Source: Candidatus Magasanikbacteria bacterium GW2011_GWA2_56_11
Lineage (GTDB): Bacteria; Patescibacteriota; Patescibacteriia; Magasanikbacterales; UBA922
Length of the DNA stretch: 64,000 bases
Reading direction: 5' to 3'
Assembly: GCA_001004885.1 (NCBI GenBank)
Contig: LCRX01000004.1
Coordinates: forward strand, 11,178-75,177
Shown one piece after another: positions 1,992 through 60,404 of the stretch. Both the position numbers and the translations under genes were made by a program. Each line of letters starts with the position of its first letter. The first letter of the stretch is position 1. The notes beneath the pieces are model-generated. The model saw nothing but the letters and a program-made list of their open reading frames with translations, searched no databases and was not told where the DNA came from.

Positions 1992-2154
1992 AAAACTCAC
2001 AGCGGGTCCCCCCCCCCCCTTTTTCGCCTCAACGTATCCTTATTTTCGCGGCACCAAAACTCGCTCTTGTGGGGTAAGACATTGGTGCCGCGAAAATCAG
2101 GATACGTTTCGGCCAAAATTAGAAGATAATTGCTAATAGCTCACTATTCAGTTT
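1992..2154 (+). repeat. Copy A of the ~155-nt nested-palindrome MITE/REP-like intergenic element (diverged copy with compensatory stem changes)
   Basis: Aligns to copies at 8682-8836(-), 19255-19410, 24559-24714, 32525-32680 and 59350-59447. Termini are GAACTCACAGCG... and ...AACTCACTATTCAGTT. Confidence 0.85.
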
Positions 2155-8675: not shown

Positions 8676-8681
8676 ACAACG

Positions 8682-8836
8682 AACTGGTAGCGAGTTATCA
8701 GCAATTCTATCCTAAGTCGAGCCGAAACAGAGACTGATTTTTACGGCACCAATGTCTGAGCCTGTAAGAGCGAGTTTTGGTGCCGTGAAAATCAGTCTCT
8801 GTTTGAGGCGAAAAGGGAGAAACTCGCTGTGAGTTC
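8682..8836 (-). repeat. Copy B (reverse orientation) of the MITE/REP-like element, between livJ and livH
   Basis: The reverse complement aligns full-length to copies C and E. It is co-oriented with the minus-strand liv operon. Confidence 0.85.
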
Positions 8837-18619: not shown

Positions 18620-19384
18620 ATGCTCACCCCGCACGAGGCCACCAACCGGCGTATCTTCAGCCGCGTAGCGAAGCGCTATGATTCCCCGCTTGCCCGCCGG
18701 GTATATTTCGGGCGGCTCTACCGCCATCTTTTGAAAATACTTGAACGCGAGGCCGGCACTACTCTCGGCGGCGCACGCGTACTGGATGTTGCCTGCGGCA
18801 CTGGCGAGATAATAAACAACCTGGCCCGGCGCTTTTCGGGTTCTGCCTACACCGGCCTCGATATTACCCCGGCGATGCTCGAGCGGGCAAAAAAGAAAAC
18901 CGCCGGCCTGGCCAACGTATCTTTTGTCGAGGCAACCGTGGATGAATTGCCGTTTTTGGACGGTGCGTTTGACTTGGTAATCTGTTCTGAAGCCTTTCAT
19001 CACTTCTCCGATCCAGGCCGGGCTCTAAGCGAAATGCGCCGCGTACTCTCGCTCCGGGGCAGACTGTTATTGGTTGATCCGGCGTTCAACCGGCCGTGGA
19101 TAAGGCGCCTGGCCAATAAATTTTTACCGCGCCTGGAGCACGCCCACGCCGTCTACAGTACAGGGGAATTAGCCGGGTTGATGGAAAATTACGGATTTAC
19201 GGTCGAGTTTCGTTCGACATACGCCCTGAATAGCTTTATACTGGGGGCCAAAAAGAACTCACAGCGAGTTTCCCCCCTTTCGCCTCAAACAGAGACTGAT
19301 TTTCACGGCCCCAAAACTCGCTCTTACAGGCTCAGACATTGGTGCCGTAAAAATCAGTCTCTGTTTCGGCTCGACTTAGGATAG
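18620..19384 (+). CDS. Class I SAM-dependent methyltransferase (Methyltransf_11); last ~40 codons are read through repeat copy C
   Basis: SAM motif VLDVACGTGEII plus LPFLDGAFDLVICSEAFHHF. The C-terminal NSQRVSPLSPQTETDFHGPKTRSYRLRHWCRKNQ is encoded by the repeat. Confidence 0.75.
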   Translation: MLTPHEATNRRIFSRVAKRYDSPLARRVYFGRLYRHLLKILEREAGTTLGGARVLDVACGTGEIINNLARRFSGSAYTGLDITPAMLERAKKKTAGLANVSFVEATVDELPFLDGAFDLVICSEAFHHFSDPGRALSEMRRVLSLRGRLLLVDPAFNRPWIRRLANKFLPRLEHAHAVYSTGELAGLMENYGFTVEFRSTYALNSFILGAKKNSQRVSPLSPQTETDFHGPKTRSYRLRHWCRKNQSLFRLDLG

Positions 19385-19410
19385 AATTGCTAGTAACTCA
19401 CTACCAGTTC
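19255..19410 (+). repeat. Copy C of the MITE/REP-like element
   Basis: Full-length alignment to copies D, E and B. Confidence 0.85.
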
Positions 19411-19419
19411 AAAGTCTAT

Positions 19420-22418: not shown

Positions 22419-24560
22419 ATGCGCGATCTGCTTAAAATCCACTTTGGCTACGATGAGTTCCGTCCTTTGCAAGAGGATGTCATCAAGACCGTCCTCGGAC
22501 GCCGGGACGCGCTGGTGCTTATGCCCACGGGTGGCGGTAAATCACTTTGTTACCAGCTGCCCGCGCTACAGTTTTCTGGCATAACTCTAGTGGTCTCACC
22601 GCTCATCGCGCTCATGAAGGACCAGGTTGACGCGCTTCAGGCCAACGGCATCGCCGCGGCCTGCCTCACCAGCACGCTCGCGCCCGAAGAATTACGTGTT
22701 CGGGAACGACAGATAGCCGCCGGGGAGATAAAAATCGTGTATCTCGCCCCGGAGCGGCTGGCCATGCCAGGTTTCCGGCAATTTGTCCGCACGCTGCCCG
22801 TGGATTTTATTGCCGTGGATGAGGCGCACTGCATCTCGGAGTGGGGGCATGACTTCCGCCCGGAGTACCGCAAACTTCAGGGTCTCCGGGCGGATTTCCC
22901 CCGCTCTCCGGTCGTCGCGCTCACCGCGACCGCGACGAAGCAAGTGAGGGAGGATATAGTCCGGGAGCTGAGATTAAAGGAGCCGCGGATTTTTGTCTCC
23001 AGCTTCAACCGGCCGAACCTGACCTACCGGGTGGAACCAAAAGACAAAACTTTCGATCGGTTAGCGCGGATTTTGGATCAATATCGCGGCGAGTCGGCTC
23101 TGGTTTATTGCTTTTCGCGCCGCGACACGGAAACACTCTCCCGCGATTTGACCGCTGCCGGGTTCTCGGCCCTGCCGTATCACGCCGGTTTGGACCCGAA
23201 GACGCGCGGGGAGACGCAGGAAAAGTTTATCCGCGACGAAATTCCGCTAGTCGTCGCGACGATTGCCTTTGGCATGGGCATTGATAAACCAAACGTCCGG
23301 CTGGTGGTGCATTATCATCTGCCCAAAAGCATTGAAGGGTATTACCAGGAGACCGGCCGCGCCGGCCGCGACGGCTTGCCGAGCGAGTGCGTGCTGTTCT
23401 ACTCGCCGGCGGATTGCGAAAAGCACCGCTATTTTATCGCCGAGATCGGCGACCCGGCGGAGCGCGCGCGCTCCGAGAGAAAACTGGCGGAGATGGTGCG
23501 GTTTGCCGAGCTGACCGCATGTCGCCGCGCGTTTTTACTCCGGTATTTCGGCGAGACGGACGCTGCAAATTCCTGCGGCGCTTGCGACCGGTGTCTGACG
23601 CCGCGGGAAACATTTGACGGCACATTGGCCACGCAGAAGATACTGTCGGCTGTTATCCGAACCGGCGAACATTATGGCGCGAGTTATATTACGGACGTTT
23701 TGCGCGGTTCCCGAAGCGCGGATATTTCCGCCCGCGGGCATGACCGGCTGGGGGTTTTTGGTTTGTTTTCGGACACGAGCAAGCCGGAGTTGCGCGATTA
23801 CATGGCGCAGCTCACAGCTGCCGGCTATCTGGGCAAAGAGGCCGGCAGGTACCCGACGCTTTTTGTTACTGCCGCCGGCAAACGCTGGCTCAGGGATCGC
23901 GGAACAGTCAGCTTGACGCGCCCTTGCGAACCGGACGAGCCTGCCGCCGGCAGGCACAGCGACTTGCCCTACGAGGTCGAACTTTTTGCTTCTCTTAGGG
24001 ACTTACGTAAACATTGCGCCCAGAAAGAAAACGTGCCGCCGTTTGTAATTTTTGGCGATCGCACTCTAATCGAGATGGCTTACTACTTGCCGGACTCGCT
24101 CTCTGGCCTGCGGGCGATTACCGGCGTGGGCGAGGCAAAGCTTGAACGCTATGGGCAGATATTTTTGCGCGAGATAACTGCCTATGCCCAGGCGCGCGCC
24201 CTTGGCGCCCGGGAACGGCCGCGGCGCCACCGCCCCGAGACTGTCCGGGCCACTTCGACGTATCTGGCCACCAGGGACCTGGTCGCCCGGCAGCTGCCGC
24301 TCTCTGCCATTGCCTCAGCCAGGGAATTGGCCCCGGAAACTATCGTGGGCCATTTGGAAAAATTGTTGGCCTCCGGCGAGGCGCTCGATATAGAATACCT
24401 CAAGCCGCCGCCGGAGAGGTTTGCCGCCATCGAGGCGGCTTTCCGCCGGAGCGGGCAGCCCTGGCTAACGCCGGTGCGGCGTCTTTTGCCGGAGGAATAC
24501 AGCTACCTTGAGCTGCGATTGGCTCGGCTGTGGCTGCGTGATATACTCGATTCCGAATGA
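22419..24560 (+). CDS. recQ: ATP-dependent DNA helicase RecQ (helicase + RQC + HRDC)
   Basis: LVLMPTGGGKSLCYQLPAL, DEAHCISEWGHDFRPEY, the Zn-binding CxxC...CxxC and a C-terminal HRDC domain. Confidence 0.9.
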   Translation: MRDLLKIHFGYDEFRPLQEDVIKTVLGRRDALVLMPTGGGKSLCYQLPALQFSGITLVVSPLIALMKDQVDALQANGIAAACLTSTLAPEELRVRERQIAAGEIKIVYLAPERLAMPGFRQFVRTLPVDFIAVDEAHCISEWGHDFRPEYRKLQGLRADFPRSPVVALTATATKQVREDIVRELRLKEPRIFVSSFNRPNLTYRVEPKDKTFDRLARILDQYRGESALVYCFSRRDTETLSRDLTAAGFSALPYHAGLDPKTRGETQEKFIRDEIPLVVATIAFGMGIDKPNVRLVVHYHLPKSIEGYYQETGRAGRDGLPSECVLFYSPADCEKHRYFIAEIGDPAERARSERKLAEMVRFAELTACRRAFLLRYFGETDAANSCGACDRCLTPRETFDGTLATQKILSAVIRTGEHYGASYITDVLRGSRSADISARGHDRLGVFGLFSDTSKPELRDYMAQLTAAGYLGKEAGRYPTLFVTAAGKRWLRDRGTVSLTRPCEPDEPAAGRHSDLPYEVELFASLRDLRKHCAQKENVPPFVIFGDRTLIEMAYYLPDSLSGLRAITGVGEAKLERYGQIFLREITAYAQARALGARERPRRHRPETVRATSTYLATRDLVARQLPLSAIASARELAPETIVGHLEKLLASGEALDIEYLKPPPERFAAIEAAFRRSGQPWLTPVRRLLPEEYSYLELRLARLWLRDILDSE

Positions 24561-24714
24561 ACTCACAGCGAGTTTCTCTCCTTTCGCCTCAAACATAGAC
24601 CGATTTTCACGGCACCAAGACTCGCTCTTGTGGGCTCAGACATCGGGGCCGCGAAAATCAGTCTATGTTTCGGCTCAACTTAGGGTAGAATTGCTGATAA
24701 CTCACTATCAGTTC
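24559..24714 (+). repeat. Copy D of the MITE/REP-like element (starts at the recQ stop codon)
   Basis: Full-length alignment to the other copies. Confidence 0.85.
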
Positions 24715-31071: not shown

Positions 31072-32463
31072 ATGTCTGTGTACCCCTGTCCGCAAAAATA
31101 TTTAGTCCGCGACCGGCGCGGTTCGGCCCTCCTGTTCGTAATGATCTTTGGCGCGATCGCCTTTACCATGATTGTGATGGGGCTCTCCGGCTACGCGCTA
31201 TTCGAGCACCGGGCGGCGCGGCGGCTCGGACACCGCGACCAGGCGTTCCATGTGGCCGAAGCCGGCATTGACTATTACCGCTGGCATCTGGCGCACAGTC
31301 CGACCGATTATACCGATGGTACCGGGGAGGCGGGTCCTTATCTGCACGAGTACACCGACAAAGACGGTACGGTTCTGGGCGCGTTTTTGCTCGCGGTCAG
31401 CCCGCCCGACTCCGGTTCGACCGTGGTAACGGTGAGTTCCACCGGCTGGACACTGGCCGAGCCGACGGCCAAGCGCACTGTCCAGGTGCGGCTGGGCTAC
31501 CCGGCGCTGACGGACTACGCCATTATGGCCAACTCCAACATGCATTTCAGCTACACTACCCAGGTATCCGGCGCGGTGCAGGCCAACGGCGGCATCCGTT
31601 TCGACGGTACGTCGGATTCGTGGGTGAGGAGCTCCAAGGAGACGTACCAGTACCAGAACCAGACGCATAACGGGGTCTGGGGCGGCGGCGGTCCGAAGTC
31701 TTTTTGGCAGTATCCGGTGCCGGCGGTCGATTTTAACGGCCTCACGGCCGATCTGGCCGCGATCAAGACCCAGGCGCAGGCAGGCGGGGTTTATCTCACT
31801 TCGTCGGGAGACGAGGGCTGGCACCTGGTGTTTAAGCCTGACCGCACTTTCGACGTGTACCGCGTGGATACCCGGCGGTGCTACAACGGCGAGGGTAAAT
31901 ATATCGGCAAATGGTGGCAGGGCAACGTGTACTGTTACGATATCGACGCGGAACAATTCGTGGCGAACTACCCCCATCCGGGCAACGGATACATTTTTGT
32001 CGAAGACCATATTTGGGTGGAGGGCATAATAGCGGGCCACCTGACGGTCGGGGCGGGACGGTTTCCCTCGTCGCCGGCCAACTACCGCAACATTTACCTG
32101 CCCGGAAATATTACCTACGCCGCTGTTTCGCAGGACGTTTTGGGGCTTATCACCCAGGGGGATATCGTGATCCCGCACGACGTGCCCGAGACGATGACGG
32201 TCCAGGCAGCCCTGCTATCGCAGTACGGCAAAATTTACCGGCCGTATTATTACCAGGATGAGCGCGATTCGTTGACCATTTTCGGCTCCCAGATATCCTA
32301 CAACGGTTCGGGCTACAAGTATGTAAACGGCTGGGGGAACGTCGTGTCCGGATTTGTGAATACGAACCATATGTACGACGCCAATTTGAAATATTACCCG
32401 CCGCCGGGGTTTCCGGTGGAGAATACCTACGAGATGATTAGCTGGGAAGAAGTCGGAAGTTAG
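31072..32463 (+). CDS. PilX-like type IV pilus minor pilin / pilus assembly protein
   Basis: N-terminus RRGSALLFVMIFGAIAFTMIVMGLSGYALFEHRAA resembles the PilX_N domain. Large C-terminal region. Confidence 0.55.
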   Translation: MSVYPCPQKYLVRDRRGSALLFVMIFGAIAFTMIVMGLSGYALFEHRAARRLGHRDQAFHVAEAGIDYYRWHLAHSPTDYTDGTGEAGPYLHEYTDKDGTVLGAFLLAVSPPDSGSTVVTVSSTGWTLAEPTAKRTVQVRLGYPALTDYAIMANSNMHFSYTTQVSGAVQANGGIRFDGTSDSWVRSSKETYQYQNQTHNGVWGGGGPKSFWQYPVPAVDFNGLTADLAAIKTQAQAGGVYLTSSGDEGWHLVFKPDRTFDVYRVDTRRCYNGEGKYIGKWWQGNVYCYDIDAEQFVANYPHPGNGYIFVEDHIWVEGIIAGHLTVGAGRFPSSPANYRNIYLPGNITYAAVSQDVLGLITQGDIVIPHDVPETMTVQAALLSQYGKIYRPYYYQDERDSLTIFGSQISYNGSGYKYVNGWGNVVSGFVNTNHMYDANLKYYPPPGFPVENTYEMISWEEVGS

Positions 32464-32524
32464 AAACCGGGATAAGAGCCGGGCTTTTTCCCGCCGGTGT
32501 TCTCTGGTATAATACTTTCAGCTA

Positions 32525-32680
32525 GAACTCACAGCGAGTTTCCCCCTTTTCGCCTCAAACATAGACTGATTTTCACGGCGCCAAAACTCGCTCTTGTGGG
32601 CTCAGACATTGGTGCCGCGAAAATCAGTCTCTGTTTCGGCTCGACTTAGGAGAGAATTGCTAACAACTCACTATCAGTTC
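32525..32680 (+). repeat. Copy E of the MITE/REP-like element (reference copy)
   Basis: GAACTCACAGCGAGTTT...CGCCTCAAACATAGACTGATTTTCACGGCGCCAA...TTGGTGCCGCGAAAATCAGTCTCTGTTTCGG...AACTCACTATCAGTTC. Confidence 0.85.
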
Positions 32681-32698
32681 TTATTCCATCGCACCTGT

Positions 32699-33571
32699 AT
32701 GCCGACACCAAAAGTGAAGAAAGGAGTCATAACCGTCGCCGGACTCGGCACCAGATTTTTGCCGGCCACCAAGGCCATGCCCAAGGAAATGCTCCCGGTT
32801 TTGGACAAGCCGGTGGTGCAGTACATAGTGGAGGAAATGGCCCAAAGCGGGATTACCGAAATTATTTTTGTTACCAGCTCCCAAAAACGCCCGATCGAGG
32901 ATCATTTCGACCGCGACGGCGATTTTGAGCGCTACCTAAAGGAAAAGGGCAAATCAGACCGGATTCAGCCCCTGGTCGAGCTGTCCGAGCGGGTGCGGTT
33001 TTTTTATACCCGCCAGAGCGCCCCTTTGGGCAACGGCCACGCGCTTTTGTGCGCCCGGGAATTCATCGGCAGCGAGCCGTTCGCTTTCTCGGACGGCGAC
33101 AGTATTATTGACTCCAAAACTCCGGTTACGAAACAGCTGCTCAAGGTATTCTACCGGGTGCGTTCGTCCGTCATTGGGGTGCAGCGCATTGACGATCGCG
33201 CGGCCATGACCAAATACGGGAACGTGTACGGCAAGCGCACGCGCGAGCCGCGCACTTACCGGGTGAGCGAGTTTCGGGAAAAACCTCCGGTCGAGGCAAC
33301 CTCCCCGGAAGGGCTGATAGTCGGCGGTATGCGGTATATATTCACCAAAGACATCTGGCCCATCCTAGAGGGACAGTCCCGGGGCAAAGACAATGAAATT
33401 TGGGTGGCGGATGCGGCCAATGCCCTGGCCAAACGCCGGTCATTTTACGCCTACGAGTACGAGGGCATCTATTTTGACACGGGCGACAAAGTGGCGCTCC
33501 TGAAAACGGCGCTGCACTTTGCTTTCAAGGATCCGGCTATTGCCCTCGAAATCAAAAAATTAGTGCAGTAG
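32699..33571 (+). CDS. galU: UTP--glucose-1-phosphate uridylyltransferase
   Basis: GVITVAGLGTRFLPATKAMPKEMLPV and VQYIVEEM are GalU motifs. The track ORF start at 32594 is inside the repeat; the ATG at 32699 is used. Confidence 0.85.
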   Translation: MPTPKVKKGVITVAGLGTRFLPATKAMPKEMLPVLDKPVVQYIVEEMAQSGITEIIFVTSSQKRPIEDHFDRDGDFERYLKEKGKSDRIQPLVELSERVRFFYTRQSAPLGNGHALLCAREFIGSEPFAFSDGDSIIDSKTPVTKQLLKVFYRVRSSVIGVQRIDDRAAMTKYGNVYGKRTREPRTYRVSEFREKPPVEATSPEGLIVGGMRYIFTKDIWPILEGQSRGKDNEIWVADAANALAKRRSFYAYEYEGIYFDTGDKVALLKTALHFAFKDPAIALEIKKLVQ

Positions 33572-33589: not shown

Positions 33590-34480
33590 ATGCCTACTAT
33601 TTTGAGAATTCAACTCCGTTTGGCGTGTGCCGGGTTAGCTATCCTGTTTTTGTTTTTTGCCGCCTCACCAACGCTGGCCCTTGACGCATCGGCCTGCGCG
33701 CAGCTTTATGGCCAATCATATTCTGGCTGCGTTCTTCTTGAAAAGGGGGCTTTTGCAGACGCCTGTCAGAATGCCCAAGGACCGTTCAAGGCCAAACTGG
33801 AGCAAACTTTGTCAAGCGGCGCGGCGCAAACCGGATCGGCCTGCACCCAGACGTTTTTGCTCATGTATAATAATTCCCAGGGAGACTTCGCGGCTGATAC
33901 CGATATCGAAAAATGCGTCGCCGAACTGGTAAACTGCGCCGAGTTGTTTTTGCAATGCCAGGGCAATACCGGCCAGGTGGACATGAACGATTTGGAAAGC
34001 CAGTGCAATTATTTTCTGGCGGGCGGCACCAAAAATTGGTCGCAGTTTAAGGGGCAAGACTTATGCAGCGCGGCTATAAAATCCGAGGGAGTCTGGGGAG
34101 AGAAGTGCGCCAAATATACCGGCGACCTGGAGAAGACCAAGGCCGAAGAAGGGTTGACGCCCCCAGCCGGCAAAGACCAGCAGGCTGAGTACGCTGCCGC
34201 TCTGGCGGAACTTCAGGCCAACGCCGCCGGGCTGAACCAGCTCAAAACCAAGGACATACGTTTGCTTATCGGCGGCCTGATAGCGAAGGCGCTCGGCGTC
34301 GTGGGCAGCATCGCGTTGTTGATGTTCGTGTATGGTGGTATACTGTGGATGACCGCGGCCGGCTCGAGCGAAAAAACCGAGAAAGGGCGCCAGATTTTGG
34401 TCTGGAGCGCTCTGGGGGTAATAGTGATTTTTTCGAGCTACGCTCTCTTGGATATAGTCTTCGAGGTGTTCCGTCCATAG
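33590..34480 (+). CDS. Secreted Cys-rich protein with C-terminal TrbC/VirB2-like pilin-type membrane domain
   Basis: Signal peptide and ~14 Cys in the N-domain. C-terminus LIGGLIAKALGVVGSIALLMFVYGGILWMTAAGSSEKTEKGRQILVWSALGVIVIFSSYALL. Confidence 0.65.
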   Translation: MPTILRIQLRLACAGLAILFLFFAASPTLALDASACAQLYGQSYSGCVLLEKGAFADACQNAQGPFKAKLEQTLSSGAAQTGSACTQTFLLMYNNSQGDFAADTDIEKCVAELVNCAELFLQCQGNTGQVDMNDLESQCNYFLAGGTKNWSQFKGQDLCSAAIKSEGVWGEKCAKYTGDLEKTKAEEGLTPPAGKDQQAEYAAALAELQANAAGLNQLKTKDIRLLIGGLIAKALGVVGSIALLMFVYGGILWMTAAGSSEKTEKGRQILVWSALGVIVIFSSYALLDIVFEVFRP

Positions 34481-35947: not shown

Positions 35948-37453
35948 ATGCGGAAATTAAACTGGCAAAAGGCGAGTGTTTGTCTTTTAGGCATATTCTT
36001 TTTGCTGTTTCTATTTTGCCCGCTGCCGACCGGGGCGGAACTTAATAAAGGAGTTAGCTATAAAGCAGTAAACGAGTGCCCTGATCCTGGCACAGGCAAA
36101 AAAATTGCTTTGTTCGTACTGGCTTTGAATCGACCACCGGCTGATTCACCGCCTCCACCTGAGGAGTACTGCGTCCCCGTTACTGACACCCAAAATACGG
36201 TCTCCTTTCAGGATTTGGTTAGTGCCGGTGTTTTCACAGACGATTGGGCAGGAGAAACATATACTTTTTCCGTTTCTGATGGCGCGGGCTGTAATTTAGA
36301 TCCGAAGATTGTCTATTGGAAAGAGGGCGCGCTGAAAGATTTGCCTCAGGCTAAATGGCCAGAACTTTCTCCGGAGATGCCGCTTTCTGGGGCGCAGTTC
36401 GTGGTGAGTGGTAAGGTCGATTATAAATGCATTGTGATGGCAGGGTCGGAACCGGAGTTACAAGACAAAAAAGATTTGAATATTATTTACTTTGTCACCG
36501 ATCCGAAATATGGACCGGAGATGGAGAAGGGGTGGGCGACTCTTGTCCCCAAGGGATTTTATGGGGACTTAGCGTACGACCAAGACGCCATTGATTGGGA
36601 AGGCGCAACAGAGATAAAGGTGGATTTTGGCGCAGTAAAGGAAATCACTGTGTTTGCCGAAGAGGACGGAGCGGGCACCAGTGGGGAGGTAAAAATAGAA
36701 TGCCTTGACTGTAACAAGGACTGGTCCGGGTTTAAGACAGAAAAAATCGAGGGCGGCGAAACAAAGGCAGTTATCAAGGTAGACACCGGCGCCTATTATG
36801 AAAAAATGGGAGTGGAGCTGCCGGCAAAATTTACCGTTAAGCTCAAAGGGACGGTGGGGAGCAAAAAAGGGCCTAGGTACAGCTTCTTTGAGTTTTCCAT
36901 CACCATCAACAAATTCAACTGCGCGGAAAAGAAAACCGGGAGCGACTGCAACAAAAACACGCAGTGTTTCTTTTTTGAAAATATTTGTCAGAGCAAGTAC
37001 GACAAGAATATCTGCAAACAGCTGCCGCAGACCCTGTGCGCCCCGGCGCCGGGCGGCAGCAAGGTTTGCACCTGGAACGAGGCCACCAAGCAGTGTCTCG
37101 AGCCGGTCGCGACGAGCATCGCCGAGAGCTACGGCGTGCCGGACGGCTACAAAGGCCCGCTGCCGCCCTGCGCCTTCTCCGGGACGTGCGACAATATCAA
37201 TATCCTCCTGAATTTGTTTATTGCCCAGGGCAAAGGCATTTTCGGCCTCATCGGCGTGGTGGCGCTCGGCGCTTTCGTTTACGGCGGTTTTATGATGATT
37301 TTCTCTCTCGGCAGCTCCGAGAGGGTAGAGACAGGGAGAAAGGCGATGACCGCGGCCGTAGTCGGGCTCATCATATCCTTTAGCGCTTATATCCTGGTGG
37401 ATTTTGTTCTCGACGCCCTCAAAGTGAGCGATTCATTCAAGGTCATAAAATAA
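35948..37453 (+). CDS. Large secreted Cys-rich protein (501 aa) with C-terminal TrbC/VirB2-like pilin-type domain
   Basis: Signal peptide and a Cys-rich ectodomain. C-terminus IFGLIGVVALGAFVYGGFMMIFSLGSSERVETGRKAMTAAVVGLIISFSAYILVDF. Confidence 0.65.
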   Translation: MRKLNWQKASVCLLGIFFLLFLFCPLPTGAELNKGVSYKAVNECPDPGTGKKIALFVLALNRPPADSPPPPEEYCVPVTDTQNTVSFQDLVSAGVFTDDWAGETYTFSVSDGAGCNLDPKIVYWKEGALKDLPQAKWPELSPEMPLSGAQFVVSGKVDYKCIVMAGSEPELQDKKDLNIIYFVTDPKYGPEMEKGWATLVPKGFYGDLAYDQDAIDWEGATEIKVDFGAVKEITVFAEEDGAGTSGEVKIECLDCNKDWSGFKTEKIEGGETKAVIKVDTGAYYEKMGVELPAKFTVKLKGTVGSKKGPRYSFFEFSITINKFNCAEKKTGSDCNKNTQCFFFENICQSKYDKNICKQLPQTLCAPAPGGSKVCTWNEATKQCLEPVATSIAESYGVPDGYKGPLPPCAFSGTCDNINILLNLFIAQGKGIFGLIGVVALGAFVYGGFMMIFSLGSSERVETGRKAMTAAVVGLIISFSAYILVDFVLDALKVSDSFKVIK

Positions 37454-37462: not shown

Positions 37463-38167
37463 ATGCGCTCTGCCCGCTGGTTTGGCCTCATGGCCGCGTT
37501 CGCGATTTTTGGCGCCGGTTTGGCGTCCACGACTACAGCCCTGGCCGTCGCCTCTCCGAGCAAAGTGCCGCTCATAAATCCGATCGGCGGCACGGTGGCC
37601 AAACCGGAAGGCCAGACCAGCATCCCGAAAATTATCGGGGGCATGATTAAAACCGTTCTCGGGATAATGGGCTCTTTGGCTTTCATTGCTTTTATCTACG
37701 GCGGGTTTGCCTGGCTCACGGCCGCCGGCAACGCCGACCGGGTGCAAAAAGGAACGCAGGCAATGGTATGGGCGGCGATAGGCGTATTTATTGTTTTTTC
37801 GAGTTATGCTATACTCAGTCTAGTTTTTGAGGGACTGGGGATAGAAGACCAGGCGCCGCCGGGTACGACCGTTTGGTGCATCGACAATGCCAACAGCGTG
37901 TGTGCCGAATTTTTGGCGGACGAGTGTCCCGGCTCCCCGTACGTTACCGAACAGGAGTGCCAGACAGTGCTGGAAAATTACCTGGACGCCCCCCCGCCGG
38001 TTGATTTGGAAGGCTGTTTCTGCACCATCGACTCGGTGGCGCAGCAAAAAGTAAGCGGCAGCCCGCTCTATGACGACCCGACAAAATGCGCGGCCGCGAG
38101 CGATACGACCGACCCGGCCCTCGGCCACCTGACCGAATGCGGCTGGATCGGCGGGGCATTTGAATAA
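37463..38167 (+). CDS. Protein with N-terminal TrbC/VirB2-like pilin-type domain and C-terminal Cys-rich domain
   Basis: Signal peptide, then IIGGMIKTVLGIMGSLAFIAFIYGGFAWLTAAGNADRVQKGTQAMVWAAIGVFIVFSSYAIL, followed by a tail containing 9 Cys. Confidence 0.65.
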   Translation: MRSARWFGLMAAFAIFGAGLASTTTALAVASPSKVPLINPIGGTVAKPEGQTSIPKIIGGMIKTVLGIMGSLAFIAFIYGGFAWLTAAGNADRVQKGTQAMVWAAIGVFIVFSSYAILSLVFEGLGIEDQAPPGTTVWCIDNANSVCAEFLADECPGSPYVTEQECQTVLENYLDAPPPVDLEGCFCTIDSVAQQKVSGSPLYDDPTKCAAASDTTDPALGHLTECGWIGGAFE

Positions 38168-38216
38168 AAGAGTAAAGCTATGGAATTTATCTACATAATA
38201 GAAGGGAGGTGATATC

Positions 38217-38723
38217 ATGTCTACGTTAACAAAATTGGCGAAGCACCGGTCGGTTATCGCGGCCGTGTCAGTTTTCGCCCTCGCTGTGGCCCTTTTGCCG
38301 GGTACAGTGTCCGCCAAAGCCGTGGGAGAAACTTGTGTCAAAGATTTGGAGTGCGACGCCGGACTCACCTGCCAGAGCGGTAAATGCGGCAAGGATGTCT
38401 TTGGGTTAAACCCGATCGACGAAGAAGTCGGCAACACCCTCGGCAATGAGGACCTGCGCAGCACCATCGGTCGTTTGATCAACGTGGCGCTCAGCTTGCT
38501 CGGTATCATCGCCGTCGTCATCATTCTCGCCGGTGGCTTCAAGTGGATGACCGCCGGAGGCAATGAAGACAAAGTGGGAGAGGCCCGCAAGATGATCTTT
38601 TCGGGTATTATCGGCCTGGCCATCATATTGTCGGCTTGGGCGATTGCCTTGTTCGTCTTGAATCAGCTTAACAAGGCGACGAACCCGGACGCGTCTGAGG
38701 ATATCTCCGATATTATCGACTAG
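38217..38723 (+). CDS. TrbC/VirB2-like pilin-type protein with small Cys-knot N-domain; first gene of the 9-gene tandem array (candidate major subunit)
   Basis: GAAGGGAGGTG RBS. Signal peptide, CVKDLECDAGLTCQSGKCG, then RLINVALSLLGIIAVVIILAGGFKWMTAGGNEDKVGEARKMIFSGIIGLAIILSAWAIALF. Confidence 0.7.
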   Translation: MSTLTKLAKHRSVIAAVSVFALAVALLPGTVSAKAVGETCVKDLECDAGLTCQSGKCGKDVFGLNPIDEEVGNTLGNEDLRSTIGRLINVALSLLGIIAVVIILAGGFKWMTAGGNEDKVGEARKMIFSGIIGLAIILSAWAIALFVLNQLNKATNPDASEDISDIID

Positions 38724-38730
38724 TTTCCGC

Positions 38731-38765
38731 GGGCAGGGGGTCGCCCCCTGCCCTTGCTCTTTATT
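38731..38765 (+). terminator. Strong GC hairpin GGGCAGGGGG-tcg-CCCCCTGCCC + T-rich tract (terminator/attenuator after first pilin-type gene)
   Basis: Perfect 10-bp stem read from the sequence. Confidence 0.55.
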
Positions 38766-38778
38766 CCCGGTTTGACGG

Positions 38779-38806
38779 GTGATACCTGGCCGGGGCCAGG
38801 TATCAC
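38779..38806 (+). promoter_or_regulatory. Second perfect 11-bp hairpin GTGATACCTGG-ccgggg-CCAGGTATCAC upstream of the next pilin-type gene
   Basis: Read from the sequence, followed by a T-rich region. Confidence 0.45.
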
Positions 38807-38829
38807 GTGTTAAATTCTTTTACTTTTCT

Positions 38830-39267
38830 ATGACTTCGCGCCGCCTTTTCCAGGCCCTGTCCCTGGGTATTATGGCCTGGGCCTCTTTGGTCCAGGTTAC
38901 GTTCGCCGATCCGCCGGCACCCCAGCCGCCATGCGGCATTGACCCCAACGACCCGCTGGCGCTCGACTGCGCCGCGGCCAGCGGACTGGTAGCCACCGAT
39001 CCGCGCCTCATAGCCGCGCGGATTATCAACGTAATTCTGGGCGTTCTAGGCACGGTGGCGACCCTGCTTATCTTCTACGCCGGCTTTCTCTGGATGACGG
39101 CCGCGGGCAACGAAGACCAGGTAACCAAGGCCAAAAGCATTATGTTCAGCGCAGTGGTGGGGTTGGTAATTATTTTGAGCGCCTTCGGCATCTCGACTTT
39201 CATCGTGCGCTACATTTACGAGGCCTCGTCCGGCGCGGGCTACGGTTCGGGCCCGGTCATTCCCTAA
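38830..39267 (+). CDS. TrbC/VirB2-like pilin-type protein
   Basis: Signal peptide MTSRRLFQALSLGIMAWASLVQVTFA and DPRLIAARIINVILGVLGTVATLLIFYAGFLWMTAAGNEDQVTKAKSIMFSAVVGLVIILSAF. The track ORF start at 38779 lies in the hairpin. Confidence 0.7.
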   Translation: MTSRRLFQALSLGIMAWASLVQVTFADPPAPQPPCGIDPNDPLALDCAAASGLVATDPRLIAARIINVILGVLGTVATLLIFYAGFLWMTAAGNEDQVTKAKSIMFSAVVGLVIILSAFGISTFIVRYIYEASSGAGYGSGPVIP

Positions 39268-39293
39268 ACCAACTCTCTTACTTTTAGGCTGTT

Positions 39294-40118
39294 ATGGCAA
39301 ACTTCCGCTCAAAAAGAATCCTGATTGCCGGCTTTGTCGCGGCCGCGGCCTGCTTCTTTTCTTTTTCCGCGGCCCTGGCCCAGTATGGCCTGGCCGAGAC
39401 CGCGAAAAGCGCGGGAATTCCCACCAACAAGAGCATTCCGGTGATACTGGGCGACGCCATCGGCACCGGACTCTCCATGATTTCCGTGGTTTTCTTCGCG
39501 CTCATGCTCTACGCCGGCATCCGCTGGATGATCGCGCGCGGCAATGATGAAGACGCCAAAAAGGCGCAGGATACCATTATTGCCGCGGTTATTGGCATTG
39601 TGATAGTGATTGCCGCCTACGCGCTGACCAATTTTGTTTTTACGAGCGTGGGAATTAGCACCGCCGGCGGGGCGGCGGCGCCCAAGGCTCCGGGCGGGGG
39701 GGCAGCACCGGCAGTACCGGTTGTGCCGGGCGGGGGAGGCGCGCCTGGAGGTTGGCCCGATCCGGTACCCGAACCAGAAATCCCGCCAGGCCCAGGACAA
39801 CCCCCAGGTCCGGGTGCTCCGCAACCACCTGGTGGTTCTAGCGGGGCCTGTGTGCCGAAAAACAATGATGCTTCTTGTCAGAGTCAATTTGAACAACAAT
39901 GGGCAGGTTACAAGGGGGCAGGTGGAACCGCTACGGATGACAACGCCAAGAAAGTTGCCTGTGTCGGAGATGACACAAACGGCTGCACATGGGACATCGC
40001 AGCACAAAAGTGTGTATTGTCCGGGGCTGCCGAACAATGTACAGCTCTTAATGAAGAGCCGGACACCGAGGAAGCGAAGGCGTCTTGTGGAGCAAGTTTT
40101 TACTGTAAGTGGCAGTAA
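39294..40118 (+). CDS. TrbC/VirB2-like pilin-type protein with Gly/Pro-rich linker and C-terminal 8-Cys domain
   Basis: Pilin-type domain LMLYAGIRWMIARGNDEDAKKAQDTIIAAVIGIVIVIAAYAL, then PGGGGAPGGWPDPVPEPEIPPGPGQPPGPGAPQPPG, then a Cys-rich tail. Confidence 0.7.
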   Translation: MANFRSKRILIAGFVAAAACFFSFSAALAQYGLAETAKSAGIPTNKSIPVILGDAIGTGLSMISVVFFALMLYAGIRWMIARGNDEDAKKAQDTIIAAVIGIVIVIAAYALTNFVFTSVGISTAGGAAAPKAPGGGAAPAVPVVPGGGGAPGGWPDPVPEPEIPPGPGQPPGPGAPQPPGGSSGACVPKNNDASCQSQFEQQWAGYKGAGGTATDDNAKKVACVGDDTNGCTWDIAAQKCVLSGAAEQCTALNEEPDTEEAKASCGASFYCKWQ

Positions 40119-40160
40119 AAACAGGGTTCGTTCTGTCAGAAGGTGGATTAACAGTACCGC

Positions 40161-40844
40161 ATGAGCATAAAACCTTTTACACTTAGTTTGCTGGTGCTGG
40201 CCCTAACTCTGGCGCCGGCGTATACGGCGCAGGCCAAGAAAACCCTGGGCGATACGCCGACTGCCCTCAACAGCGCGGTGGCCCCGACCGGCATTGAAAA
40301 AACCGATGTATTGTCCATTAGCGGCAAAGTAGTGAAAGGGGCGCTCGGGATGGTGGGGCTGGTTTTCTTCGTTCTCATGGTCTATGCCGGCATCCGCTGG
40401 ATGACGGCCCGGGGCGACGAGGACGCGGCCAGCAAGTCGCGCGACACGATGATAGCGGCAGTAATCGGACTGATAATAATCGTGGCCTCGTATGCAATTA
40501 CCAGTTTTGTTACCGACCGTATTGTACTGATGCAAACGGCAGTGGATGTTGACGGCTCCGGCCTGAGCGGCGACATGCTGGGAAACGAACCACTGGCCTG
40601 CTGCATCGTGCCGGCCACCGCTAACCCGAACAGTCCGTATACGGCGAGCCTGCGCACCGAGGCCGAGTGCGCCAGTTTGTCCGAGGGCGGGGTGCAGGGA
40701 GCGGACTGGGAAATTTATCATATTCCCAACAATAATTTTACCGTTTGCGAAGCGATCAATAATTGCTGGAATAATCCCAACGGCAGCCAGAGCACTTTTT
40801 TTGCTGAGTGCCTATCCAAGGCAGGCGTAAAGAGCGAACCTTAA
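40161..40844 (+). CDS. TrbC/VirB2-like pilin-type protein with C-terminal Cys-rich domain
   Basis: LVFFVLMVYAGIRWMTARGDEDAASKSRDTMIAAVIGLIIIVASYAI followed by a tail containing 7 Cys. Confidence 0.7.
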   Translation: MSIKPFTLSLLVLALTLAPAYTAQAKKTLGDTPTALNSAVAPTGIEKTDVLSISGKVVKGALGMVGLVFFVLMVYAGIRWMTARGDEDAASKSRDTMIAAVIGLIIIVASYAITSFVTDRIVLMQTAVDVDGSGLSGDMLGNEPLACCIVPATANPNSPYTASLRTEAECASLSEGGVQGADWEIYHIPNNNFTVCEAINNCWNNPNGSQSTFFAECLSKAGVKSEP

Positions 40845-40848
40845 ACCT

Positions 40849-41214
40849 ATGAAGTACTTATATTCTTTTCTACTGGCTGTTCTCGGCCTGGCACCGGGCA
40901 TATTATCGGCCGCCGGTATCCAGAGTTCCGGGCCTAATTTGTCCACGGTAGCCAAAAAAGCCGAGTTTTCGGAAAACGTACTCCTGCCGGAAATAGTCGG
41001 CACGGTTATTAACGCCGTGCTTAGTTTGGTCGGGCTAATTTTTTTGGTCCTCATGGTCTATGCCGGCATACTGTGGATGACGGCTAGGGGCGACGAAAGC
41101 AAGGTGGAGAAAGCGAAAACCATTATCGAGGCTTCGCTTATCGGGCTGTTCATTACGGTCAGCGCCTATGCCATCACCGTATTTCTTACCGGCCGCTTTG
41201 AAACCGCACCCTAA
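40849..41214 (+). CDS. TrbC/VirB2-like pilin-type protein (minimal, 121 aa)
   Basis: Signal peptide plus LIFLVLMVYAGILWMTARGDESKVEKAKTIIEASLIGLFITVSAYAI. Confidence 0.7.
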   Translation: MKYLYSFLLAVLGLAPGILSAAGIQSSGPNLSTVAKKAEFSENVLLPEIVGTVINAVLSLVGLIFLVLMVYAGILWMTARGDESKVEKAKTIIEASLIGLFITVSAYAITVFLTGRFETAP

Positions 41215-41224
41215 TTTATTTTTT

Positions 41225-41677
41225 ATGACCGCTCTCGCCCAAAAGTTTGCCCCCTTCCTGCTGATATTCATTCTCGGACATTTTTTGGCGGCCCCGGCCC
41301 TGGCCCTGAACCTGGGCGGTGGGGACACCGGTAGCACCTGGCAGGCCGCGGACAAGGCCGGGTACGACAAAGCCGGAGAGACGACACTGGCCGAGACGGC
41401 GGGTAAGATAATAAAAATTGTGCTTTCGGTGGTGGGCGTAATATTTACCGCCCTCATGGTTTATGCCGGCATACTGTGGATGACGGCTAGGGGCGACGAA
41501 AGCAAGGTGGAGAAAGCGAAAGATATTATTGAGGCCTCGATAATCGGGCTCGTGATTGCTCTGGCTTCGTACGGACTGACGAGTTTTGTGGTGAATAACG
41601 TGCTCGATCAGACGGCGCCGTCGCCGGCCGCGCCGGAGCCGGTTCCCGAATCTGGTGCAGGGGGTGCTGGCGAGTAG
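41225..41677 (+). CDS. TrbC/VirB2-like pilin-type protein with short Ala/Pro-rich tail
   Basis: VIFTALMVYAGILWMTARGDESKVEKAKDIIEASIIGLVIALASYGL. The track ORF starts at 41168; Met20 is used. Confidence 0.7.
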   Translation: MTALAQKFAPFLLIFILGHFLAAPALALNLGGGDTGSTWQAADKAGYDKAGETTLAETAGKIIKIVLSVVGVIFTALMVYAGILWMTARGDESKVEKAKDIIEASIIGLVIALASYGLTSFVVNNVLDQTAPSPAAPEPVPESGAGGAGE

Positions 41678-41726
41678 TAGTTTTTTGTCCGGCATTTAAC
41701 GGTCGTCCTCCTCTAAGGATATACTT

Positions 41727-42155
41727 ATGCCCTTCTGGTACAAAATAAACGTGATGGTGCTCCTGGGGGCTTTTACCCTCACAGCCTCTCCGGCAGCCGC
41801 GGCTCCGAAATTCCTGGGTGATATAGACAAGCAACTGAACGCCGGAGCCGGGACTGCCGGCCTGGCCGCCAAGAATGTCGCCCCGGCCGATCCGCGCCTA
41901 GTGGCCGCCAGCTTTATCCAGACGATACTCAAGGTGCTAGGCGTGGTTTTCGTCGTCCTTATTGTTACGGGCGGTTTCCGTCTGGTCAAAGCCAACGGCG
42001 ACGAGAGTAAGATTGAAGAGGGCACGAAGACCGTCCAGATGGCGGTCATCGGGCTTTTGGTAGTTTTGTTTGCCTACAGCATCGCCTGGTTTGTCGGCAC
42101 CCAGATCCAAAAAGCTATTAATAACGCCGCGCAGGCGACCTCTGCCGGCAGCTGA
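41727..42155 (+). CDS. TrbC/VirB2-like pilin-type protein
   Basis: DPRLVAASFIQTILKVLGVVFVVLIVTGGFRLVKANGDESKIEEGTKTVQMAVIGLLVVLFAYSIAWF. Confidence 0.7.
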   Translation: MPFWYKINVMVLLGAFTLTASPAAAAPKFLGDIDKQLNAGAGTAGLAAKNVAPADPRLVAASFIQTILKVLGVVFVVLIVTGGFRLVKANGDESKIEEGTKTVQMAVIGLLVVLFAYSIAWFVGTQIQKAINNAAQATSAGS

Positions 42156-42158
42156 CCT

Positions 42159-42668
42159 ATGAGACAGTTCGCAGTCGCCACTGTTTTTTTAGCCGCCTTT
42201 GCCGCTTTGGCCGCGGTTAGTTTGTCGCCCGGCAGGGCCGGCGCGCAGTCTTTGGCCGACGAAATTAACAAGCAGAGCGGCGCTTTTGCCGGAACGCAAG
42301 GCGCCAATTTAAAGAATGCCGATCCGCGCCTGCTCATGGCCCAGATAATTAAAATCTTTCTGACCCTTATCGGGACACTTTTTCTCGCCTACACCACCTA
42401 TGGCGGTTTCCTTGTTTTTACCGCGGCCGGCGACGCGGACAGGATCGAACACGCCAAAAAGATTATCTTCTACGGCAGTATCGGGGTGTTGATCGTCTTG
42501 ACTGCCTACAGCATCGCCTGGTTTATCTGGCAAATGTGGCTTGACGCGCAAAATCAAAATCCGTTTGGCAGCTTTTTCGAGTGGGGCGTGCAGCCGGACA
42601 CCAGCCAGTTTTACATCAAAGATCCGCTTTACGGACCGACAGTGCCAAAAGAGCTGGGCCCTCTCTAG
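42159..42668 (+). CDS. TrbC/VirB2-like pilin-type protein (last of tandem array)
   Basis: DPRLLMAQIIKIFLTLIGTLFLAYTTYGGFLVFTAAGDADRIEHAKKIIFYGSIGVLIVLTAYSIAWF. Confidence 0.7.
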   Translation: MRQFAVATVFLAAFAALAAVSLSPGRAGAQSLADEINKQSGAFAGTQGANLKNADPRLLMAQIIKIFLTLIGTLFLAYTTYGGFLVFTAAGDADRIEHAKKIIFYGSIGVLIVLTAYSIAWFIWQMWLDAQNQNPFGSFFEWGVQPDTSQFYIKDPLYGPTVPKELGPL

Positions 42669-56227: not shown

Positions 56228-56299
56228 TGTCCCGACCAGGAGTCGAACCTGGGTTTAGAGCTTAGAAGGCTCCCGTTCTATCCATTGAACTATCGGGAC
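56228..56299 (-). tRNA. tRNA-Arg (anticodon TCT)
   Basis: The rc folds with acceptor GTCCCGA/TCGGGAC, D-arm GTTC..GAAC, anticodon stem GGAGC / loop CTTCTAA / GCTCT, T-arm CCAGG-TTCGACT-CCTGG, discriminator A. Confidence 0.85.
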
Positions 56300-59349: not shown

Positions 59350-59447
59350 GAACTCACAGTGAGTTCCCCCCTTTCGCCTCAAACATAGACTGGTTTTCAC
59401 GGCCCCAAAACTCGCTCTTACAGGCTCAGACATTGGTGCCGTAAAAA
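59350..59447 (+). repeat. Copy F of the MITE/REP-like element, 3'-truncated
   Basis: The first ~98 nt align to the other copies. Homology is lost after GTAAAAAT. Confidence 0.75.
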
Positions 59448-60404
59448 TGGGGTGATCTTGGGGTGCCGGGCTATCATTCGGCGCACGTCTTTTTCGGTGA
59501 GGAGGCCGGTTTGCGCCCCCCACTGTTGGATAACGCCGCCGGCATTGGCTGTGCCCCACTGCATGGCTTCGGGGAGGGAAGACCCAGACATGTAGGCGCG
59601 CAGAAAACCGCTGGCGTAGGCGTCGCCGGCACCGGTTTTGGAAACCACCTTAACAGGGTAGCTGGGCAGGAAATAAAGGTCGTCTCCTTGGGAGGCGAAT
59701 GAGCCGCGGACGCTGTCGGTAACGACAACAGTTTTGGGTCCGAGACGGCGCACCGCGGCGCACAGGGCGCGCATAGTCCTTTTTTCGCCGGCGAGACGCT
59801 CCGCTTCTTGTTTGTTAACAATCAGAAGATCGGTCAGAGGCAGAATTTTGGCGAATTCCTCCCGGCCTTTTTTGAGCTGGTATGATCCCGGATTCACGGC
59901 CAGCTTGAGCGTGCGGTGCCGCTTTAGATACGCGGCGAGCCGTGCCTGGAGGCGTTCGAAAGATTCGCCGAGCGATGTGTAGTACAGCCACCGCGCTGCC
60001 GGCAGAGCCGGCAGGCGATAACGGCGGGCGGCATGATAGGCCAGAATGGTACGTTCTCCGCGGTAGCTCAGGACAATCGAGTAACGCGTGGTCGCGCGCG
60101 GCTGCAAAGAGACGAGGCCGGTGTCAACCCCGGCCTCTTGCAGAGCGTCGTGTATGGCGTAGCCGTTCAAGTCGTCGCCAAGCTGGGTTACAATCGCGGC
60201 GGCCAGGCCCAGCCGGCTCGCTCCGGCCGCCACATTGGCCGCGTTGCCGCCGACCGATTGCGCGGTTTCTTTGATGGGGATTTTTTCCGCGTAGTCCAAA
60301 CAGAGCTGGCAGTGTTCGCGGCGCACGTCGCACTGGAGCGTGGCGTCGTCCACGATGAGGAAAGTGTCCAAGGTGGCGTCGCCAATGGTGATAAGGTCGA
60401 ACAT
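59418..60404 (-). CDS. PfkB-family carbohydrate kinase (ribokinase-like)
   Basis: C-terminal TGAGDAYASGFL motif and N-terminal GG motif SVGGNAANVA. The last ~10 codons overlap repeat copy F. Confidence 0.75.
   Translation of the reverse strand: MFDLITIGDATLDTFLIVDDATLQCDVRREHCQLCLDYAEKIPIKETAQSVGGNAANVAAGASRLGLAAAIVTQLGDDLNGYAIHDALQEAGVDTGLVSLQPRATTRYSIVLSYRGERTILAYHAARRYRLPALPAARWLYYTSLGESFERLQARLAAYLKRHRTLKLAVNPGSYQLKKGREEFAKILPLTDLLIVNKQEAERLAGEKRTMRALCAAVRRLGPKTVVVTDSVRGSFASQGDDLYFLPSYPVKVVSKTGAGDAYASGFLRAYMSGSSLPEAMQWGTANAGGVIQQWGAQTGLLTEKDVRRMIARHPKITPFLRHQCLSL

Follow-up and report, generated by a model that had tools for sequence, protein, structure and literature searches.

The 64,000-nucleotide (nt) stretch of DNA analysed here (the window; positions 11,178 to 75,177 of contig LCRX01000004.1 from Candidatus Magasanikbacteria bacterium GW2011_GWA2_56_11) contains a previously undescribed family of nested-palindrome miniature inverted-repeat transposable elements (MITEs), each about 155 nt long. 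The copies lie just downstream of candidate host promoters and point in the direction of the adjoining gene, a combination that probably reflects co-transcription of the MITE as a 5′ leader hairpin under RNA-level constraint. The host belongs to the Candidate Phyla Radiation (CPR) and derives from Rifle aquifer groundwater (metagenome project PRJNA268031). Its nearest RecQ relative among 5.8 billion proteins searched is only 60% identical, indicating a lineage without a close sequenced relative.

An earlier note on this DNA had described six copies of a ~155-nt nested palindrome, and nhmmer with a profile built from five full copies returned exactly these six as sense matches in the window, with none other at E < 1; an unfiltered covariance-model search with the central hairpin added no copies. 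The coordinates in that note stand apart from the first bases of copies A (1993, not 1992) and B (8681, not 8682). The six stretches of ~155 nt each align with a mean column identity of 78–84%. Each unit measures 154–162 bp, below 300 bp, and is repeated six times in the window and at 12 further loci. As had been claimed, the unit carries 16-nt imperfect terminal inverted repeats (GAACTCACAGCGAGTT / AACTCACTATCAGTTC), which match at 13 of 16 positions and are kept in all copies; the 3′ end shows three mismatches to the 5′-end pattern, and the element ends were set at GAACT...AGTTC. Between them stands an internal hairpin with a central stem of ~28 bp, whose loop resembles the reverse complement of the 5′ end (AAACTCGCT versus AGCGAGTTT). 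Each unit thus contains three copies of the motif AACTCRCT, of which the 5′-terminal one is inverted and those of the loop and the 3′ end are direct; in copy E the loop of the central hairpin holds this third copy of the terminal motif as AACTCGCT. The apical loop is the most conserved part of the element and is nearly invariant among copies. Recurrence of these copies in at least five assemblies made independently from this organism rules out an assembly artefact, and the family is real.

A pattern scan of metagenome contigs yielded 12 real loci (L002–L008 and L010–L014), of which L004 is the same as L007 and L012 and L013 are one locus. A protein search with translated frames added one more locus, L035, bringing the total to 18 independent loci with the window included; another hit, L009, was discarded as a chance match. 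The metagenome copies are 85–96% identical, and their flanks are unlike the window in both DNA and translation, with no orthology between window and metagenome loci beyond the element. These loci share both their aquifer samples and their G+C content with the window, and may represent further stretches of its genome or the genome of a close relative.

Searches beyond this population point to a narrow distribution. A protein search with six translated frames recovered only the methyltransferase of the window and one local contig, and no other organism. At the gathering score, Rfam 15 reported only two tRNAs in the window, and at E ≤ 10 the element matched only generic miRNA-hairpin models, with 20–23 bits against cut-offs of 70–100. 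The literature searched held no mention of repeats in Magasanikbacteria. Among 185,579 species genomes scanned, the sole match was in a Coprococcus sp. metagenome-assembled genome (MAG; JBNMJG010000031.1), in which a different palindrome of ~180 nt, located between two convergent genes (L001 319–388, minus strand), bears at its tip a near-identical 30-nt loop, CAAAACTCGCTCTTACGGGCTCAGACATTG. The central-hairpin model R1 scores the Coprococcus hairpin at 48 bits (E = 4e-9 in a 156-kb search and 1.7e-11 for the locus alone). About four random matches to the 19 specified bases are expected; since 10 of the 12 adjacent unspecified positions also agree and the match lies at the apex of a long hairpin, chance is an unlikely explanation. 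The Coprococcus and CPR hairpins are either distant members of one superfamily or bearers of a loop that is itself a functional module. BLAST of the element and of the Coprococcus hairpin found no match in plasmids, phages or E. coli genomes, and two pattern scans of viral contigs gave only chance matches when checked with nhmmer.

The flanks of the copies identify them as genuine transposon insertions. Nine of the 16 full copies are bordered by a perfect 3-bp duplication (GTT, AAA, ATT, AAT, CAC, ATG, AAT, ACT and TTA) and five more by triplets that match at two of three bases, whereas sliding the register by 1–3 bases leaves 0, 0, 0, 3, 3 and 0 perfect matches. A fixed 3-bp target-site duplication characterises insertion by a DDE-type transposase, be it cut-and-paste or copy-in, and it is on these duplications that we class the copies as true transposon-derived MITEs. 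The targets are A/T-rich with no strict consensus, and comparison of the flanks revealed no TA or other fixed target motif and no conserved left-flank oligonucleotide. The element has stop codons in all six frames, and no transposase domain was found in 30 scanned open reading frames (ORFs) of the window or in the annotated neighbourhoods and tables of related loci, so the element is non-autonomous. Nor did the window, ~250 kb of related loci and the plasmid, phage and viral collections searched contain an autonomous parent with the same termini, and this material gave no parent transposase that would make the family a known MITE derived from an insertion sequence.

Element-free relatives of two loci provide a view of the sites before insertion. 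Orthologues of galU on three other contigs (79–81% identity; 40–48% G+C) lack the element and keep TGATATACT, TGGTATAAT or TTGATATACT at 8, 20 and 33 nt before the ATG. In the window the galU order is TGGTATAAT, 8 nt, the duplicated triplet, the element, and 15 nt from the second triplet to the ATG. In a relative with the syntenic recQ-PDDEXK-S6-SSB-S18 block, the spacer measures 31 nt, versus 309 nt in the window. The relatives with empty sites share 60–81% amino-acid identity with the host and are too diverged to display the exact empty target. One copy (L011 8983–9137, minus strand) has its central hairpin and loop inverted with respect to the outer arms, such that the model scores the opposite strand at 96 bits, which indicates recombination across the inverted arms.

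The insertions occupy a narrow position relative to predicted promoters. A TAnnnT −10 hexamer ends 10–13 nt before the element in 14 of 18 loci, compared with a background of 2.5% of window positions (binomial P ~ 1e-19), and the mirror-image test on the 3′ flank is positive in 1 of 17. The hexamers are TATAAT, TATACT, TATTAT and alike, often preceded by TG or GG. The 10–13-nt spacer between box and element is not conserved, in contrast to the element itself, which argues that the box belongs to the host and not to the mobile unit; the promoter boxes retained by the element-free galU orthologues confirm this assignment. When leaders are rebuilt without the element and one copy of the duplication, they mostly span 15–30 nt from box to ATG. 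Such leaders would allow many other positions, yet the insertion point falls 7–10 nt after the hexamer. With the transcription start predicted at 7 nt after the box, insertion would have occurred at roughly +2 to +6 of the transcript. The downstream ATG is 1–25 nt away in 11 loci, and at L008 the start codon is formed by the duplicated triplet.

The surroundings of these boxes are those of transcription-unit starts. A terminator-like hairpin of the preceding gene often lies upstream of the box (copies E and B, L003, L005 and L007), and in six loci the preceding gene is divergent, so that transcription of the element there must come from a promoter in the spacer. Upstream terminators and divergent genes together indicate that the element marks the beginning of a transcription unit rather than an operon interior, with a usual order of upstream terminator, native extended −10 promoter, 10–13 nt, element, 1–25 nt and start codon. 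The suggestion that the copies might be intra-operon attenuators or hairpins resembling 3′ repetitive extragenic palindromes (REPs) is therefore mostly not sustained. An intrinsic terminator or attenuator is likewise ruled out by the lack of a U-tract after the hairpin: the element ends in CAGTTC followed by variable sequence, and the region 32300–32800 contains no terminator-like site and no U-tract past the hairpin. The 3′ part of the element could in principle supply a ribosome-binding site and start codon (AGGAG...TTG), a candidate that we rejected because this TTG is in frame with the real ATG in about one-third of copies, the level expected by chance. Sequestration of the start codon by the hairpin gave no consistent picture.

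The host itself appears to use short leaders. Shine–Dalgarno motifs are missing before the gene starts of the window, in which the extended −10 motif TGnTATAMT occurs 8 times versus 0.98 expected (0 of 100 shuffles reach 8). Before element-free genes this motif stands 13–14 nt from the ATG (57873 to 57895, and 60983 to 60968 on the minus strand). Several window genes have merely 8–14 nt between −10 box and ATG, a distance at which their mRNAs would be leaderless or nearly so.

Orientation is as constrained as position. Of the full copies, 15 have a downstream region that can be read, and every one of these shares its orientation with the gene that follows (2^-15 = 3e-5), in agreement with the original proposal of non-random placement and shared polarity, and copy F is sense to the gene whose 3′ untranslated region (UTR) holds it. 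Replication does not dictate this bias: copy B is inverted together with the liv genes inside a window of uniform, monotonically rising cumulative GC skew, and the two copies on L011, separated by 2 kb, face opposite ways, each in line with its own gene. Insertion in both directions would be expected of a transposase that acts on near-symmetric ends, and the bias most probably reflects selection on the transcribed strand.

The palindrome is also conserved as a structure. Versus shuffled sequence, the fold z-score is −6.4 for the sense RNA and −8.6 for the antisense RNA. A 48-pair consensus structure drawn from 15 distinct copies has 96% of its cells paired. Changes on both sides affect ten pairs, versus 2.9 in column shuffles (0 of 500 shuffles reach ten), and sliding the partner by 1–3 columns leaves 1–3 such pairs. 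Of the ten pairs, three come from the flipped loop of L011b and should not be counted, and the central stem accounts for five. Copy A contributes four compensated pairs, with GTATCCT/AGGATAC replacing ATAGACT/AGTCTAT, L035 has an A-U to G-C exchange, and L014 a matching 2-nt insertion in both arms. This pattern of substitutions indicates that the hairpin is maintained, whether at the RNA or the DNA level.

A CGCG on both arms of the central stem (element ~49–53 and ~92–96; window 32573–32577 and 32616–32620) varies only by transitions, as CACG, TACG, CGTA and CGTG, often uncompensated. It looks like a transition hot spot rather than covariation, possibly through deamination at a methylated site.

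We propose the following account of these observations. The family consists of non-autonomous MITEs found so far in one Ca. Magasanikbacteria population and one distant relative. Host −10 boxes would fire such that the element is the first thing transcribed, and near-leaderless mRNAs would thereby gain ~5 unpaired bases and then an interrupted ~50-bp hairpin. This 5′-terminal hairpin could protect the message from RNase E or J attack that depends on the 5′ end, serve as a processing site for RNase III, or do both. An effect on the mRNA at its 5′ end would account for the constrained position and orientation alike, and would most simply explain such uniform survivors in a genome that discards useless DNA. 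That the promoters are active, the element transcribed and the mRNA affected we infer from the placement and fold described above. As a composite, co-transcription of a MITE as a 5′ leader hairpin under RNA-level constraint is the reading that we hold to be probable. The earlier preference for RNA function over MITE insertion is partly supported: the constraint on the transcribed strand stands, whereas the duplications and empty sites remove the opposition to a MITE origin, and the RNA-level function would be exerted by a transposon.

Several observations weigh against this account. Four leader-type copies (D, L010, L007 and L011a) lie 93–238 nt from the next start codon; copy B (TAAAAT 6 nt away) and L003 (inserted into a TATAAT-like sequence) have other promoter spacings; the box at L011b, TATAAC, is 13 nt off and fails the TAnnnT test; and copy F is located in a 3′ UTR, the one exception to the leader rule, yet sense-oriented. 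In all 16 copies the antisense RNA has the better predicted fold, by 5–17 kcal/mol; where the sense strand has C·A mismatches, the antisense has G·U pairs. Selection for hairpin stability should have produced the opposite asymmetry. A wobble-versus-mismatch comparison (19 versus 10 variable pairs) is not significant and favours neither strand clearly; on pairs common to both predicted structures it gives 13 versus 7 cells, and the outcome of this G-U versus A-C strand test depends on whose strand's structure is used. Compensatory changes in a palindrome can also stem from DNA-level processes. All copies may come from one population, in which case many shared features would be inherited and not independent. 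The downstream genes are functionally mixed with no obvious regulon, and transcription starts, read-through and processing are all predicted.

Some of these points would fit a purely selfish MITE, which we regard as possible though rather unlikely. Its transposase, encoded elsewhere or since lost, would prefer the distorted A/T-rich DNA just past a −10 box, for example at the downstream edge of the open complex, and purifying selection in a compact genome would purge antisense or misplaced copies. The target-site duplications and A/T-rich targets suit this explanation, as do the heterogeneous downstream genes and the high identity among copies, which suggests recent spread; the tight 7–10-nt spacing would also be difficult to achieve by selection alone. 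The sense strand has 0–1 upstream ATGs versus 1–3 for the antisense, which has more in 15 of 16 copies, and purging of antisense insertions could follow from these upstream AUGs or from the more perfect duplex that the antisense RNA forms in every copy. However, a symmetric transposase should insert without regard to orientation, which would require one insertion in two to be lethal or lost to selection. The 3′ intergenic regions should accept both orientations, yet only copy F is seen there, in the sense orientation. The compensatory changes further show upkeep of the hairpin. Under RNA-level constraint on a leader hairpin, the same asymmetry between strands may mean that only the orientation with the weaker, interrupted duplex is tolerated in mRNA.

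The 7–10-nt spacing could reflect either target choice, for example of bent, partly melted DNA where the open complex ends downstream, or the retention of only those insertions placed at the 5′ end. A stronger form of target choice, which we consider doubtful, is a promoter-homing transposon: the transposase would recognise the open complex or −10 region and insert at ~+3 to +5, and the element would have been exapted as a 5′-UTR module whose loop, also present in the hairpin of a gut Firmicute (Coprococcus), is read by a trans factor. Were this so, a near-leaderless CPR bacterium lacking Shine–Dalgarno sites could share post-transcriptional control among unrelated genes.

An improbable variant places the function entirely in the loop. 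The element would be a portable cis-regulatory leader with a 24–30-nt loop to which a single trans-acting factor, whether protein, small RNA or ligand, binds; the carriers would form a co-regulated set, and transposition would merely spread the module. The near invariance of the loop agrees with this notion, as do the strictly leader, strictly sense placement and the Coprococcus MAG hairpin topped by the same loop (48 bits, E = 4e-9), although that hairpin lies between convergent genes and is not a leader. Envelope or surface functions seem frequent among the downstream genes (GalU, two epimerases, a glycosyltransferase, a sugar transferase, pilin-like and CAP proteins, transporters), but a nuclease and phosphoenolpyruvate (PEP) synthase also figure in this apparent theme. 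There is no Rfam match even at permissive thresholds, and retention of the copy with the flipped central hairpin shows that loop orientation is dispensable.

Least probable is a DNA-level role in which RNA is irrelevant and the palindrome, extruded as a cruciform or folded on the template strand while the promoter region is unwound, would bind proteins, have a topological function or be acted on by a single-strand-specific recombinase: the mRNA-complementary strand does fold better in all copies, compensatory changes suit DNA hairpins equally and the flipped L011 hairpin shows recombination across the arms, but single-strand (HUH/IS200-type) transposition yields no 3-bp target-site duplications, orientation tracks transcription and not replication (copy B and the L011 pair), and no associated recombinase gene was seen save an unrelated tyrosine recombinase by a tRNA.

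The coordinates of the window copies and their surroundings are collected in Table 1. The gene pairs named in the earlier note (livJ-like/livH-like, methyltransferase/CAP, RecQ/PDDEXK_1) and GalU are confirmed by Pfam; the 'pilX-like' label given to the gene upstream of galU has no Pfam hit behind it.

Table 1. Copies of the MITE family in the window, with their promoter boxes, target-site duplications and neighbouring genes.
Feature	Position	Strand	Details
Copy E	32525..32680	+	full 156 nt, GAACT...AGTTC; nhmmer E 2.5e-55; fold −57.8 kcal/mol, z −6.4
Copy E central hairpin	32557..32636	+	28-bp stem, 24-nt apical loop; covariance model R1 101.9 bits
Copy E extended −10 box TGGTATAAT	32505..32513	+	ends 11 nt upstream of element
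Copy E target-site duplication	CTA 32522..32524, TTA 32681-32683	+	2/3 match
galU (UTP-glucose-1-phosphate uridylyltransferase)	32699..33571	+	Pfam NTP_transferase; orthologues
Copy A	1993..2154	+	most diverged; poly-C expansion; four compensatory pair changes in central stem
Copy A −10 box TATACT	1975-1980	+	
Copy A target-site duplication	AGA 1990-1992 / AAA 2155-2157		
Copy A neighbours	ATG 2170		downstream T4SS-pilin-like gene (ATG as given); upstream gene divergent
Copy B	8681..8836	-	inverted, as are the liv genes
Copy B neighbours	8888-10033; ATG 8675		livJ-like binding-protein gene with terminator-like hairpin; livH-like permease (ATG as given); Pfam
Copy B target-site duplication GTT	8837-8839 and 8678-8680		perfect
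Copy B sole −10-like box TAAAAT	8843-8848		only 6 nt from element, spacing atypical
Copy C	19255..19410	+	between methyltransferase gene and CAP-domain gene (ATG 19420); Pfam
Copy C −10 box TATACT	19237-19242	+	
Copy C target-site duplication AAA	19252-19254 and 19411-19413		perfect
Copy D	24559..24714	+	begins within recQ stop codon (flank T + element GA)
Copy D −10 box TGATATACT	24539-24547	+	inside recQ 3′ end
Copy D target-site duplication	AAT 24556-24558 / AAA 24715-24717		
Copy D downstream gene, PDDEXK_1 nuclease	start 24869		154 nt past element; Pfam (RecQ and PDDEXK_1)
Copy F	59350..59448	+	first 99-103 nt only in window; nhmmer model positions 1-103

The galU ATG lies 18 nt downstream of copy E and has no Shine–Dalgarno site. 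The methyltransferase ORF (18620–19384) reads 130 nt into copy C and thereby gains a 43-amino-acid C-terminal tail. Gene callers begin galU (32657) and the CAP gene (19387) at a TTG within the element, with AGGAG before it.

Copy F follows the stop of a plus-strand gene (58613–59317), precedes a bidirectional terminator and faces a convergent PfkB kinase gene. It had been described as 3′-truncated, which is the case only in this assembly: in two other assemblies of the locus (L083/L084 8249–8402) the copy is full length, 154 nt, with flanks 100% identical, and the window lacks 103 nt relative to them. Relative to other assemblies with flanks 99.98–100% identical, the window lacks 111, 117 and 103 nt at ~555, 57422 and 59448, respectively. 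The first loss splits a PilB/T2SSE gene (ORF of 396 amino acids in the window, 577 elsewhere), the second takes away the beginning of a SpoU methylase gene and the third cuts copy F short. These three losses of about read length are either assembly gaps or strain deletions. Half copies at L013 2943–3044 and window 59350–59448 stop at an identical internal base, after CCGTAAAAAT; they are 100% identical over 99 nt and then continue into unrelated sequence. Intact elements occur at L012, which has the upstream flank of L013, and at L083, which has the flanks of the window, and the breaks in the half copies may reflect joins that an assembler made at the palindrome. In this assembly the PfkB kinase ORF (59418–60404, minus strand) ends in element-derived codons.

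Other features of the region were recorded. At least seven paralogous small T4SS_pilin (TrbC/VirB2-like) genes are arrayed at 37463–42668, with more copies at 2170–2700, 33590–34480 and 35948–37453, and related genomes have such pilin genes immediately after galU. The tyrosine recombinase gene (Phage_integrase domains; 56228–57351, minus strand) adjoins a tRNA gene and has no link to the repeat family; it could encode a Xer-type or island integrase. A second, unrelated palindromic repeat family with the core ...CATACTTAGGCATTCC...GCCTAAGTATG... is present in several copies in a contig that has an element copy (L007 3093–3200; L004 79–167, 2578–2634, 2833–2871 and 4096–4223).

CPR bacteria are unculturable alone, and their promoter use, leaderless or Shine–Dalgarno-less translation and RNA decay are essentially unstudied. 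The element flags about one predicted transcription start per 10–30 kb, which can be checked in existing metatranscriptomes. If its lock on position is a matter of target choice, it would be a bacterial counterpart to the transcription-start-directed integration of some eukaryotic retroelements; if a matter of selection, the family would constitute an unusually clean natural experiment on the effect of a 5′-terminal hairpin on mRNA.

Among the closest known systems are the Correia/NEMIS elements (CREE) of Neisseria, non-autonomous palindromic MITEs of 107 or ~155 bp that are often co-transcribed and whose RNA hairpins are proposed RNase III substrates modulating adjacent mRNAs (PMC2229807). 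The Magasanikbacteria family resembles them in size and palindromic form and in having target-site duplications as well as terminal inverted repeats. The Correia type is marked by TA termini, a TA duplication, 24–26-bp repeats, an IHF site and outward promoters of its own, whereas the Magasanikbacteria family has GAAC/GTTC termini, a variable A/T-rich 3-bp duplication, no internal promoter, a fixed 10–13-nt distance to a host −10 box, a strictly sense orientation and a CPR host; judged by the known features of Correia elements, the two are also dissimilar in sequence. ERIC/IRU elements of enterobacteria are ~127-bp imperfect palindromes in transcribed intergenic regions, with an orientation-dependent effect on the stability of flanking mRNA (PMC2229807). 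Unlike the present family, they occur in both orientations, mostly between or after genes, with TA termini, 7-bp repeats and no anchoring to transcription starts. The YPAL/RU-2 elements of Yersinia are 168-bp, non-A/T-rich palindromic mobile repeats without TA termini and with target duplications down to 3 bp (PMC2229807). Their duplications range from 3 to 26 bp, their targets are regions of dyad symmetry such as terminators, their inverted repeats are internal and no promoter-proximal rule is known for them.

Two other classes of palindromic repeat were considered and rejected. REP elements and the bacterial interspersed mosaic elements (BIMEs) that they form are short, abundant, transcribed intergenic palindromes that can stabilise mRNA and are mobilised by RAYT. 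They are 20–40 nt long, lie mainly 3′ of genes, make no target duplication and depend on a Y1 HUH transposase, in contrast to a 155-nt unit with a 3-bp duplication located 5′ of genes. Palindrome-associated transposable elements (PATEs) derived from IS200/IS605 insert 3′ of a fixed tetra- or pentanucleotide without duplication and have subterminal hairpins, not terminal inverted repeats; the Magasanikbacteria family has a duplication and no conserved left-flank oligonucleotide.

The effect proposed here has precedents in single genes. Emory, Bouvet and Belasco (1992) and later studies reportedly showed that a hairpin placed a few unpaired nucleotides from the 5′ end protects against 5′-end-dependent attack by RNase E/J, and the E. 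coli ompA leader and the B. subtilis aprE and ermC leaders are 5′-terminal stem-loop stabilisers. The predicted Magasanikbacteria leaders are alike in having ~5 unpaired nucleotides followed by a hairpin. The ompA, aprE and ermC leaders are single-gene, non-mobile and short, whereas the hairpin described here is a mobile 155-nt cassette with a predicted stabilising effect. The element is built like the classical MITEs Correia, ERIC and YPAL and would work like them, with similar size and palindromic RNA and, as predicted, co-transcription and effects that depend on orientation, but is a member of none of these families. We know of no bacterial MITE family in which copies are locked to one promoter-relative position and one orientation, and it is this lock on the predicted transcription start and on a single orientation that sets the Magasanikbacteria element apart from known MITEs.

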